Shown here one piece after another: positions 1-64,000 of a DNA stretch of 64,000 nucleotides. The stretch's first letter is position 1. Each line of letters opens with the position of its first letter. This DNA comes from Treponemataceae bacterium. Its GTDB lineage: Bacteria; Spirochaetota; Spirochaetia; Treponematales; Rectinemataceae. The position numbers are program-made. The stretch covers positions 448,001 to 512,000 of the forward strand of contig CAXXHO010000005.1 in assembly GCA_963667725.2 (NCBI GenBank), given 5' to 3'.

Positions 1-3000
1 CGCGCTTCTTGCGTAAAGGAGCGAAGCGACTCGCAAGAAGCGTGACAAAGAGCGTTATAAGGTTGAAGCGGTTGTTGGACGGCTATTAATATTTATTAGT
101 TTCCGCTTTTATGATTCTCTATTAGAATCCCATTCCTTTTTTAAAATCGCAAATTGCATTGTATTTTCATACTTTGGTGTACCATCCTCATTATTTATAA
201 ACGATATAAATTCCTTAAAACACCCCTCATTTCTCATTCCTAGTCTCTTACATAGTTTTTGTGATCTTATGTTATCATCTTCAACATACGCATATATCCG
301 TCTTGCTTTTTTGACTTCAAATAGGTAGATAAATAAAGCTTCTGCACTTTCAAAAGCATAGCCTTTACCTTGATAATCTACATTAATATTCCATCCAATA
401 TCATAAGTATCAGGTTCTTCTTTCTCAAAGAACAAATCACCAATTACTTCATCAGTATCTCTTAAACAAATGGCAATTGAATTTTTCAGTTTACATCTTT
501 TTTTAACTTCGATTCTTGCTTCTTCAAAGGTATTTACCTTTTCTGATACAAAGCAATTTACTCTTGGTTTTGATAGATATGCGAATAGGCTTGAAGCATC
601 TTTTTCTAAAAAACTTCGTAGAATTAACCTATCTGTTTCTATTGGATTCATCAATCAAAGCTCCCTAGACATTGTAATAGCATTATACTGAGCTAAATTC
701 TACCCTATATTTCCATATGTCCGCCCAACATTGGCTTAACCCTTAACGCCTGTTCCTGAGCGAAGCGAAGGATTGGCGTGGTTTTTGCGTGATCTTCTCG
801 CAAAAACCATGACAAAAGGCGTTATAGGGTTGAAGCGGTTGTTAGGTTTTACCTATTTCTTTTCTGACTTAAGATATTTTTTCTTTTCAATATATGCTAA
901 AAATTTTGTTCCTATTTTTGTAATTGAATATCTTCTATATTGTACGCTTGCTACTTTTTCGTTTACTACTAAATCATATATTTGTAACTGTGGACATAAC
1001 CTGAAATACAAAAAAGAGTCCAAATCGTTTATTCCATATTGATTTGTAACACCTCTTAATAAATCTTCTTTAAACGCTAAAAGCAAATTTAATAAAGGTA
1101 TTTCATCTGGTAATTTTTCATTTTTACCTCCAATTAATTTCTTGATTGAGGATATATCTATCTTCTTACTCCTAAGTATTTTTTCTAACTCTGAATATTC
1201 TATATCTTGTTCTTTTTTAGCATCGGGAGTAGTATTAATATCTGCTTTTTTAATCTTGGACGCTTCATCCTTTAATTTATCAATTTCATTATGCAACCTT
1301 ATTAGTTCGTCTGTTAATGATTTTACGTCAGGAGAATCATCATACCTAATCCACCCCGCATTCTGATGCTCCGATGCAATTGTTGATAGAGATTCATATA
1401 CTGATAGCTTTAAATCCTTTGTATCAGTAAAAAATGATGAAATCTTGTTCAATACTTTTTTCCTAAACTCTTCCAGCTTTATGCTATTATCTTTTTCAAT
1501 AATTTCAACACCCTCTACCTTCTTTTTTTGTTCAATTCCTTCATCAGAAATAACTACAGCGAAGAATGGAAGTCCTAATGATATGGCGTAATCATATTCT
1601 AATTCTGTATAACTAACTCCGGTTTGAGGTTCTATGGAACCATAACGTGTACCAAGAATAAGTACATATACGTCTGATTCACCTATCCATTTCTGAATGA
1701 TTTCCCATTGGCTTTTATCACCAGCAATAAAAAGTTCCATACCTGCTGGTATATGCCCGCACCTTAATATTGTTTGAACAGCAGATTGTCGTTCTTCTTT
1801 AAGATCTTTATATGTTGATGAAATAAACACTTGAAGTTTTGTCTTCAATTCTTACTCTCCTTAATAAACCTAACATTTTCGCTTAACCTTTAAATCCGTC
1901 CTGAGCGATAGCGAAGGATTGGCGCGCATTTTGCATTGTTGTTCTTGCAAAATGCGTGACAACAGGATTTATAAGGTTGAAGCGGGTGTTAGAAATCTTC
2001 TTTTTATATTATTTAGTTAAAAGCTTGGATCTTCTCGAGTTCTTTAACCATCTTTTTTCTTGCTTCTCTTATATCTAACTCATTCTGTAGATTAAGCCAA
2101 AACTTATAAGAATTCCCAAAGAACTTTGAAAGTCTAAGCGCCATCTCAACAGTAATTTTCCTTTTATTATGAAGTAAGTCTAAAACTGTACTTGTTGAGA
2201 CTTTTAGCTCTTTCGACAACCTATACGGAGTGATATCAAGAGGCTCAAGAAATTCTTCTCGTATAATTTCTCCTATTGTAGGTGTTTCAATATAGTCTTT
2301 ATTCATTCTCTTCTTCTCCTTAATGATAATCTACAATAGAAACCTCAAATGCCTCGCCACCCTTAAATTTGAACTGAATCCTCCATTGATCATTGATCCT
2401 TATTGAACAATAGCCTTTCTTTATTCCCTGCAAGTGCTCAAATCTATTTGAAGGTGCAACCCTAAAATCTTCTTCTGTAGTAGAAGCATCAATAAAAAGC
2501 AGCTTTACTAAAGCCCGCTTTTGTATCTCTGGTGGCAGCTTTTTTGATCTTTCTTGATGAAAGATCTTTTCTGTTTCAGCATCACCAAAAGACTGAATCA
2601 TGATTACAATATACGCTACACAGATATATCTGTCAAGAAGATATTACAAACACTATATTATTACAAATAATGGCATATTTCATTATTTTGTATATGTTTG
2701 CTTGATTCCACGGCGTTACTCTTCCTGCGCGGGAGCGTCTTTCTAACATTGGCTTAACCTTTAAATCCGTGCCCGAAGGGCTTGGCGCGGTTTGTGCATA
2801 AAGGAGCGAAGCGACTGCACAAACCGTGACAAAGGATTTATAAGGTTGAAGCACTTGTTAGGATAATTTTTTTCAATCCTTACTATACTCTTACTTATCT
2901 TTCTTTCCCAAATATCTTTAATATCTCTTCTTTAGTTTCTTTAAATATTACCTGCTTAGTCTTATTACTCTCATATATAAAGTCCCTTAAGCTCTTACTC

Positions 3001-63000: not shown

Positions 63001-64000
63001 GGCGTTATAGGGTTGAAGCATTTGTTAGAAACCTTCCCCTTGTGTCTCTCAAGGTTTTTTATTATTGTCTTCAATAAATCTCTTATTATTTATGTTCTTA
63101 GTTTCTTATCTTTATTCAATAATATCTTCTTTATTCTCATATTCAATATAGTCTTCTCTTCTCGGGCTAAAGACTTCTATAGCTACTGAATCTTCAAGTA
63201 TTTCTGCCTTATGTTTAACATTTGATAAAATTGTCCAACTATCACCAGGATGTAATACTTTAGATTTTCCATCTATAAAGAGCCTAATGCTGCCTTTTAC
63301 GAGATATCCAGTTTGTTCATTTATATGCTTATGTTCAGGAAGTGCAGCATCTTTATTAAGTAAGAATTCAACAAGTAATGAATTTTCTCCATAGCTAAGA
63401 GTCTTAATGCTTATACCAGGGATGATTTCTTTGTATCCATTTCTCGATGCAATGCCGAACATATGCTTTTCTCCATCATGTTGATTAATAATTACTGCAA
63501 TGAAATATAAATATTCTTCCTGCGCGGGAGCGTCTTTCTAACATTGGCTTAACCTTTAAAGCCTGGCCCGAGCGGCGTTGCGTAGCAACGATGCGAGGGA
63601 TTGGCGTGGTTTTTGCGTGATCTTCTCGCAAAAACCATGACAAAAGGCTTTATAAGGTTGAAGCAGTTGTTAGGCGAAAGTTTTTTCTCTTTTACCCTTA
63701 TGACTATTTTCTTCAAGTTTCCCTGTTACGTACTTATGTAAAATGCTAGTTACTAATGTCTGATATGGAATTCCTTCTTCTAATGCTCTTGTTTTTAAAG
63801 CTTCCACATCTCTTTTTGATATCCTCACATTTATCCTATAGTCTTTAATTGCAGTTTCTGAGGCCGCAGTAATTAACTTCTTTTTCATCTCTTCAAGGTT
63901 TTCTATACTCTTCCATTCTCCATTCTCTATGGATTCAATGATCTCTTTATCTTCTTTGGTATTCATATGCTTCCTCCAAGTTTATACTGCTTTGTATATT

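Follow-up and report, generated by a model that had tools for sequence, protein, structure and literature searches.

The gene-less cassettes that we call family B, six of which lie in the integron array studied here, carry a real, selected and uncatalogued structured cargo within a known class of cassette: the family is new and the class is not. The cargo is a 114-nt hairpin of fixed geometry with compensatory base changes. It is neither an attC site nor an alternative crossover site, and our best reading, held tentatively and at somewhat less than even confidence, is that the fold has been selected because it would act on the array transcript, as a site of RNase III-type processing or as a released small RNA.

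Gene-less cassettes of the C5 array

The window, by which we mean the whole stretch of 64,000 nucleotides that was analysed, is enclosed by a minus-strand cassette array that runs from about 408 to 550 kb of contig C5. The integron integrase gene (C5:550880-551806) lies upstream of the array on the same strand and is followed by attI, the arrangement described for Treponema (PMC11014356). Two further integrons are present in the genome, on C1 and C7. An attC profile derived from 106 seed sites of the array yielded 226 callable cassettes over the three contigs, 162 of them on C5, and the proteins encoded by cassettes in the window were the usual GNAT, NUDIX, methyltransferase and PIN proteins.

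Eighteen inserts on C5 were far shorter than the rest, twelve of 162-165 nt (family A) and six of 227-229 nt (family B), and since the next shortest insert measured 425 nt, the short cassettes form a class apart, as a preliminary description of this DNA had held. That description had counted seventeen; its six family B members stand, and its eleven family A members become twelve on C5 plus a thirteenth own copy on C3 (1653902-1654064). Ranked by size among the paralogue clusters, family A was the largest (12) and family B joint third (6). The cassette started at the GTT of R' and ended in its own attC in 6/6 own and 3/3 metagenome copies of family B and in 13/13 own copies of family A. Both families comprise several paralogues with differing neighbours, and a search for a fixed neighbouring gene beside family B found none. 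Because of this R' start, the own attC, the varying neighbours and the many copies, families A and B are ordinary mobile, multi-copy integron cassettes without a gene. Gene-less cassettes adjoined each other in five pairs (p = 0.06 in a clustering test). Features in the window are collected in Table 1.

Table 1. Gene-less cassettes and their conserved elements in the window (positions count from its first nucleotide)
Feature	Position	Strand	Remark
Family B cassette, copy 1	39414..39779	-	229-nt insert and long-type attC
Hairpin (114 nt), copy 1	39601..39714	-	
Motif X (AATGTAAGA followed by 3 nt and CAT), just 5' of copy 1 hairpin	39720..39728	-	invariant in 10/10 copies
Motif Y (AGTGTTAA), just 3' of copy 1 hairpin	39593..39601	-	invariant in 9/10 copies
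Family B cassette, copy 2	39050..39413; hairpin 39237-39349	-	in tandem with copy 1
Family B cassette, copy 3	36135..36501; hairpin 36323-36436	-	
Family B cassette, copy 4	32669..33034; hairpin 32856-32969	-	
Family B cassette, copy 5	30488..30851; hairpin 30675-30787	-	identical to copy 2
Family B cassette, copy 6	22163..22528; hairpin 22350-22463	-	
Sole family A cassette in the window	47918..48215	-	165-nt insert and attC
49-nt block of family A with near-invariant sequence, a short purine/pyrimidine hairpin	48145..48193	-	1 variable column in 49, against 42 in 116 elsewhere

All six reading frames had been described as full of stops in both families. This is true of family B, where the small ORFs seen in some copies are not conserved. 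In family A, 5/12 C5 copies and that of the same-genus genome G050 have one frame without stops through the insert (56-57 codons), the ATG of which comes from the junction with the upstream attC; since this frame is broken in 7 of the 13 aligned copies and the variation is not synonymous, family A is non-coding as well, and the broader claim holds for both.

The conserved part of family A is its near-invariant block, whose conservation was matched by none of 20000 permutations. The copy on C3 keeps 44-45 of 46 block bases, with 74-85% identity elsewhere. No paired changes were seen within the block, so what it displays at the level of the alignment is conservation of sequence and not of structure. 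The whole insert folded no better than its shuffles (z -0.04 sense, -2.3 antisense). The inserts are mosaic and are joined to three attC types, probably through recombination among paralogues. We confirmed the copy in G050, where it heads a small array within a prophage-like region; on C3, family A likewise heads an array, one without an integrase. Matches outside the genus, sought with three mismatches, stayed at control level, and none was viral. A retron or other RNA linked to a reverse transcriptase was considered for family A and rejected, as the cassette precedes a UG9 reverse transcriptase in G050 alone and this genome has no close reverse transcriptase.

Three more gene-less families occur in the genome, C (on C1, five copies), D (on C7) and E (on C5, two copies). 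Families C and E share a hairpin type, and E adjoins family B in the metagenome locus L031. A gene-less cassette came first in 3/7 array heads (C1, C7 and C3 at 1654 kb), compared to 26/226 of all called cassettes (binomial probability about 0.04, calculated by hand), with coding heads at C5 and at 1641 and 518 kb of C3, and an ambiguous head at 352 kb of C3 counted as coding. Family B was never seen as the first cassette of an array. The excess at array heads is suggestive of either high mobility or selection next to the promoter.

The family B hairpin and its conservation

The hairpin consists of a 20-bp closing helix, a bubble of 9-10 x 13 nt, helices of 6 and 3 bp, a bulged A and a 10-bp apical helix closed by a 5-nt loop. 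Folding of one insert as RNA reproduced the reported value of -68 kcal/mol for the sense strand (z -6.2), and the other strand folded strongly as DNA (z -5.2); over the copies, neither strand folds consistently better.

A search of 69 genomes of the family with BLAST and a covariance model found, as before, one homologue among the 68 other genomes, in G033 (76% identity over 138 nt), which keeps its attC and has its 5' end cut by an insertion sequence. No further copy was found among 400 genomes of the order by BLAST, among 150 with the model or among 400 of the phylum by pattern. A metagenome scan with a pattern different from the one used earlier returned 11 loci, three of which (L022, L030 and L031) are whole family B cassettes between two attC, in agreement with the earlier finding; the other eight were chance matches and were dropped. 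Across GTDB, one pattern matched a helicase-like gene by chance, a second retrieved the element of G033 alone, and a third retrieved this element and four other loci, which scored nothing with the model. Fifteen viral loci were all due to chance, and a pattern search of plasmids found none. All ten copies, own and foreign, stand before an attC, and the loop word matched six times in the window compared to 0.8 expected. The reported lack of an Rfam family was borne out, with no match in the window at gathering score and below it, at E up to 10, only matches to miRNA and snoRNA hairpins.

Covariation was counted with the helices anchored row by row, since the uncorrected automatic alignment was out of register in three own rows and inflated the count to 11 pairs. 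In the register-corrected alignment of ten copies, 365 of the 390 cells of 39 pairs were Watson-Crick. Five pair positions switch Watson-Crick type, two of them with three pair types, and one more changes from A-T to T-G, which upholds the earlier count of 39 pairs with six changed on both sides. The bubble, the bulged A and the 5-nt loop are constant over the copies, and the A-U-rich terminal 11 bp of the hairpin are invariant except for one base. The reported invariance of the loop is circular for the three metagenome copies, in which the loop had served as bait, and is tested independently only by G033. Own copies are 94-100% identical, own and foreign copies 68-74% and foreign copies among themselves 79-98%, and hence the sample amounts to about three to four independent lineages. 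Between own and foreign copies, identity reaches 79-100% in motifs X and Y and the cassette ends, about 70% in the hairpin and 27-50% in the linkers.

Neutral decay, or self-perfection of one arm from the other, would not by itself keep unpaired motifs and asymmetric loops. It is therefore likely that the fold and its flanking motifs are under selection and are not debris, and the proposal of the preliminary description to this effect gains from the covariation, the fixed geometry and the conserved flanks. Over the ten copies, the non-Watson-Crick positions read on the transcribed strand comprise four G-U and five A-C; inside the helices of the four foreign copies there are G-U at four positions and A-C at one, and most A-C pairs sit in the six redundant own copies. 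This pattern leans slightly towards a sense-strand RNA with relaxed paralogues, and the element may act as a small RNA or as a DNA hairpin.

In attC sites the AAC and GTT triplets are the sole conserved bases, and function requires an L box, a spacer and extrahelical bases (PMC2727003). The ends of the family B hairpin had been read as inverted R boxes that offer the integrase a duplex for alternative recombination, and neither part of this reading survived. At the 5' base of the hairpin, three of the four foreign copies (G033, L022 and L030) have the triplet ATT instead of GTT, the order of the triplets is swapped relative to attC, and the spacer on the Y side measures 3 nt compared to 5 nt in 150/150 attC matched by pattern. 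Motifs X and Y are not complementary, so that no L box can pair, and the attC profile found no match inside family B. The bottom strand folded better in 214/214 distinct attC with RNA energies (by 8 kcal/mol on average) and in 211/214 with DNA energies, whereas the preference in family B was mixed (7/10 and 5/10, respectively). Because the triplets are broken, the spacer is 3 nt, no L box exists and bottom-strand bias is missing, family B is not an attC and not an alternative crossover site. Like the attC described in PMC2727003 and PMC5371416, it forms a hairpin with imperfect pairing, comparable in size and stability, that has R-like words at its base and a single bulged base; it differs from them in precisely these four respects.

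We also folded the upstream attC, insert and own attC together at equilibrium. The hairpin did not lower R-box pairing of the attC relative to shuffled controls; the flanking R boxes paired at 0.78/0.64 with the hairpin intact, compared to 0.60/0.50 with its letters shuffled (6 copies, 24 shuffles). A decoy acting in cis, by which family B would rob a neighbouring attC of its R-box pairing, was thus not seen.

Possible roles of family B

Although promoters in this genome are plain (TTGAC-17/19-TAnnnT occurs 90 times compared to 5.7 in shuffled sequence), family B contains no recognisable sigma-70 promoter (-35/-10 pair) and no terminator, and any RNA from it would have to come from read-through. 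With no recognisable promoter of its own, family B is most likely read within the array transcript, which would start at the platform promoter or at promoters of toxin-antitoxin cassettes. Large arrays in Vibrio are reported as largely transcribed (PMC11014356). RNase III would then cut the regular closing helix of 19-20 bp, which is long enough by the standard of the E. coli enzyme, for which a 34-nt RNA is a sufficient substrate (PMC1540722); an RNase III gene (rnc) is encoded in the genome, with a score over the cut-off. Such a cut may split the long cassette message into units, free a structured RNA of 75-115 nt, or both, and the invariant apical loop of the freed RNA could bind a partner. 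A search of the genome for an antisense target found nothing beyond chance 14-15-mers. Families A and B would gain copies in the usual way, through excision and re-insertion, which their small size would favour, and family A, as a separate module with a conserved part of 46-49 nt, may contribute weak promoters of the extended -10 type at either end. Against an RNA stand the G-U positions (4), which do not exceed A-C (5) where a strongly selected RNA should favour one strand, the lack of a strand that folds consistently better, the small number of independent lineages (about three to four), the lack of a fixed neighbouring gene and of an antisense target, and the integrase-core-like look of X and Y, which fits a role as DNA too. 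Comparison by eye with sigma-28, sigma-54 and ECF consensus sequences gave no fit. A mimic in the manner of 6S RNA was dropped, as its bubble would be offset from the GACAA word by about 5 nt; that 6S RNA was not found in this genome carries no weight as evidence. An invertible segment was also rejected, since 10/10 copies share one orientation.

The fold could instead serve the cassette itself, by shortening the single-stranded distance between its two attC and hiding its R-like words, with arm-to-arm template switching producing the paired changes. Selfishness has already been proposed for gene-less cassettes (PMC1382264), and here the gene-less families are the most repeated cassettes and head 3/7 arrays; excision can increase with shorter cassettes (PMC5371416), quasi-palindromes in yeast perfect themselves by template switch (PMC3820800), and the higher R-box pairing beside the intact hairpin points the same way. 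Self-perfection would, however, erase the bubble and bulge that remain constant, the unpaired motifs X and Y are retained, family A, which lacks a strong fold, still numbers 13 copies, and length effects concern mainly very long cassettes or poorly folding attC (PMC5371416). We regard this explanation as unlikely. Only slightly less probable is a DNA element with four core-like words (X, both hairpin ends and Y) that the integrase IntI would bind but not cleave, so that IntI is titrated or recombination at nearby sites is tuned. X and Y contain TGT(T/A)A(A/G), as the R' context of attC does; X lies 7 nt before an R-like word, a spacing found in 24/150 attC; the terminal 11 bp are nearly invariant; non-cleaved L boxes of attI lack the G/C of the triplet, so that ATT would suit a site that is only bound (PMC2727003); and missing strand bias is expected of a duplex or cruciform. 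Against it stand the unpairable X and Y, the short spacer, the silent attC profile, the lack of enrichment of the X and Y words in the arrays (36 vs 40 and 25 vs 30 in shuffled sequence) and the conserved inner helices, bulge and loop, which it leaves unexplained.

A promoter cassette, as described among gene-less cassettes of Vibrio and oral Treponema, is very unlikely for family B; for family A it is more plausible, if still doubtful. In 12/12 C5 copies of family A the extended -10 word TG-T-TAGAAT stands at both ends, on opposite strands, and five of the twelve carry a second such word, TG-T-TATACT; TGnTAnAAT shows about twofold enrichment upstream of genes (22 vs 11). Motif Y of family B reads TG-T-TAA(G/C)CT in 8/10 copies, and prediction has missed real promoters in Vibrio (PMC11014356), but TAAGCT and TAACCT are under-represented upstream of genes (18 vs 37 and 17 vs 33), TG-T-TA arises at any attC junction, family B lacks a -35/-10 pair, and a promoter has no need of a conserved fold of 114 nt. 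Still more improbable is a MITE-like element, or a remnant of cassette ends that were nested or folded back, now decaying neutrally. The 20-bp terminal inverted repeat, ends that repeat the cassette's own R words and several A-C mismatches in the six own copies would suit such an origin; the flanks show no target duplication, this genome holds no copy outside family B cassettes, and geometry is identical and flanks conserved at 70% overall identity. A wider proposal, which we consider improbable, is that gene-less cassettes serve as control modules of the array. Family B would then supply either a structured RNA or a DNA fold that the integrase binds and cannot cleave, and so govern the expression of the array or the rate at which it is shuffled; A, C, D and E would be other modules of this kind, and all would return repeatedly to attI because they act from the first position.

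Relation to known cassettes

The roles known for gene-less cassettes are to supply promoters and, in one case, a small RNA. Family B offers a test case for cassettes free of genes, being short, with a defined fold, natural compensatory alleles and no recognisable promoter, and failing the attC tests; a few constructs could separate the RNA, integrase-binding and selfish-mobility models. The preliminary description had suggested that conserved structured non-coding cassettes would be new; the class itself has precedents. Paralogous non-coding cassettes that appear to be under purifying selection are on record for Vibrio, where a selfish role and a regulatory one have been put forward (Boucher et al. 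2006, PMC1382264), and 6-49% of Vibrio arrays is gene-less (PMC1382264). Promoter activity has been shown for many gene-less cassettes of Vibrionaceae (PMC11014356) and oral Treponema (PMC6557892), and sRNA-Xcc1 of Xanthomonas is a cassette-borne small RNA (as cited in PMC6557892, PMC8876359 and 10.1101/2025.06.18.660453). A literature search covering few subscription journals found no published covarying hairpin as cassette cargo.

Like the non-coding cassettes of Vibrio (PMC1382264), those described here have no gene, their own attC, many paralogues per array and homologues in near relatives only, over the whole length. They differ in their spirochaete host and in a cargo with a defined fold and compensatory changes, the term 'secondary structure' being absent from that article. 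Compared to the promoter cassettes, family B has no recognisable sigma-70 promoter, and PMC11014356 and PMC6557892, in which this term is likewise absent, report no conserved hairpin cargo. sRNA-Xcc1 provides a precedent for a small RNA on an integron cassette; according to the citing texts it is located upstream of symE and runs against the direction of the array, whereas family B has neither a partner gene nor an Rfam match.

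Candidate leader hairpin upstream of integrase genes and array heads

All seven leader sites in the genome under study (G000) have one promoter type in common, TTGACTT-17-TAT(G/C/A)(A/C)T, with a hairpin ~50 nt past it. Promoter and hairpin lie upstream of all three integrase genes and of four integrase-less array heads. The top of the hairpin is an invariant 17-nt sequence, ATTCTGTTTCGGCGAAG, unlike the lower stem, which covaries freely. Six of the 68 family genomes also contain the exact motif, against none for the control, and the hairpin had no match in Rfam. We consider it a candidate leader RNA, common to the integrase gene and the cassette arrays, for regulation or antitermination. 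The integrase-less arrays of contig C3 open with the promoter, the leader hairpin and an attI-like site similar to the main attI, and are probably satellite platforms served in trans.

Features of the arrays and of gene-less cassettes in G000 and elsewhere
Feature	Location	Strand	Remark
Promoter and leader hairpin	C5:552224-552240	-	G000
Promoter and leader hairpin	C1:35812-35828	-	G000
Promoter and leader hairpin	C7:36573-36589	+	G000
Promoter and leader hairpin	C3:351932, 518581, 1641384, 1654397		G000
Integrase-less array	C3:1636344-1654400	-	G000
Integrase-less array	C3:351900-359550	+	G000
Integrase-less array	C3:518500-528636	+	G000
Family E/C-type hairpin cassettes	C5:549393-549883	-	G000
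Family E/C-type hairpin cassettes	C5:534565-535055	-	G000
Family E/C-type hairpin cassettes	C1		G000, 5 copies
Family E/C-type hairpin cassette	L031:1270-1755		Metagenome locus
Family D gene-less cassettes	C7:38698-39123; C7:42784-43208; first C7 cassette		G000
Aminoglycoside 3-N-acetyltransferase-family cassette	Window 30967-31719	-	Immediately upstream of a family B copy
Transposase gene adjoining family B cassette	L005/L018 (G033:C54)		
Small array headed by family A cassette	L033/L073 (G050:C30), about 16-22 kb		

Cassette starts and further gene-less families

Within their first 30 nt, most array cassettes carry the 8-nt R' word, then GACG and a short GC-rich mini-hairpin, followed by the gene. 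A 3-nt GNA loop is frequent in this mini-hairpin on the bottom strand, and the element may be relevant to how cassettes arise or are recognised. A hairpin of 64-67 nt is common to the gene-less families E and C: its closing stem and its apical motif agree between the two, although the surroundings differ. Gene-less family D (425 nt, GC-rich) has a strong fold of about -155 kcal/mol and supplies the first cassette at the C7 attI.

Neighbours of families A and B in related genomes

In the family B cassette of G033, a genome of another genus, the first ~45 bases are replaced by the adjoining transposase gene, which we take to be ISL3-like; the hairpin and motif X are still intact. The small array of the same-genus genome G050 lies in a prophage-like region with the family A cassette at its head. 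Next come a cassette-type start and a reverse transcriptase gene of the UG9 type, which occupies two frames, and then another long ORF. Judged by eye, this last ORF resembles DNA polymerases of family A.
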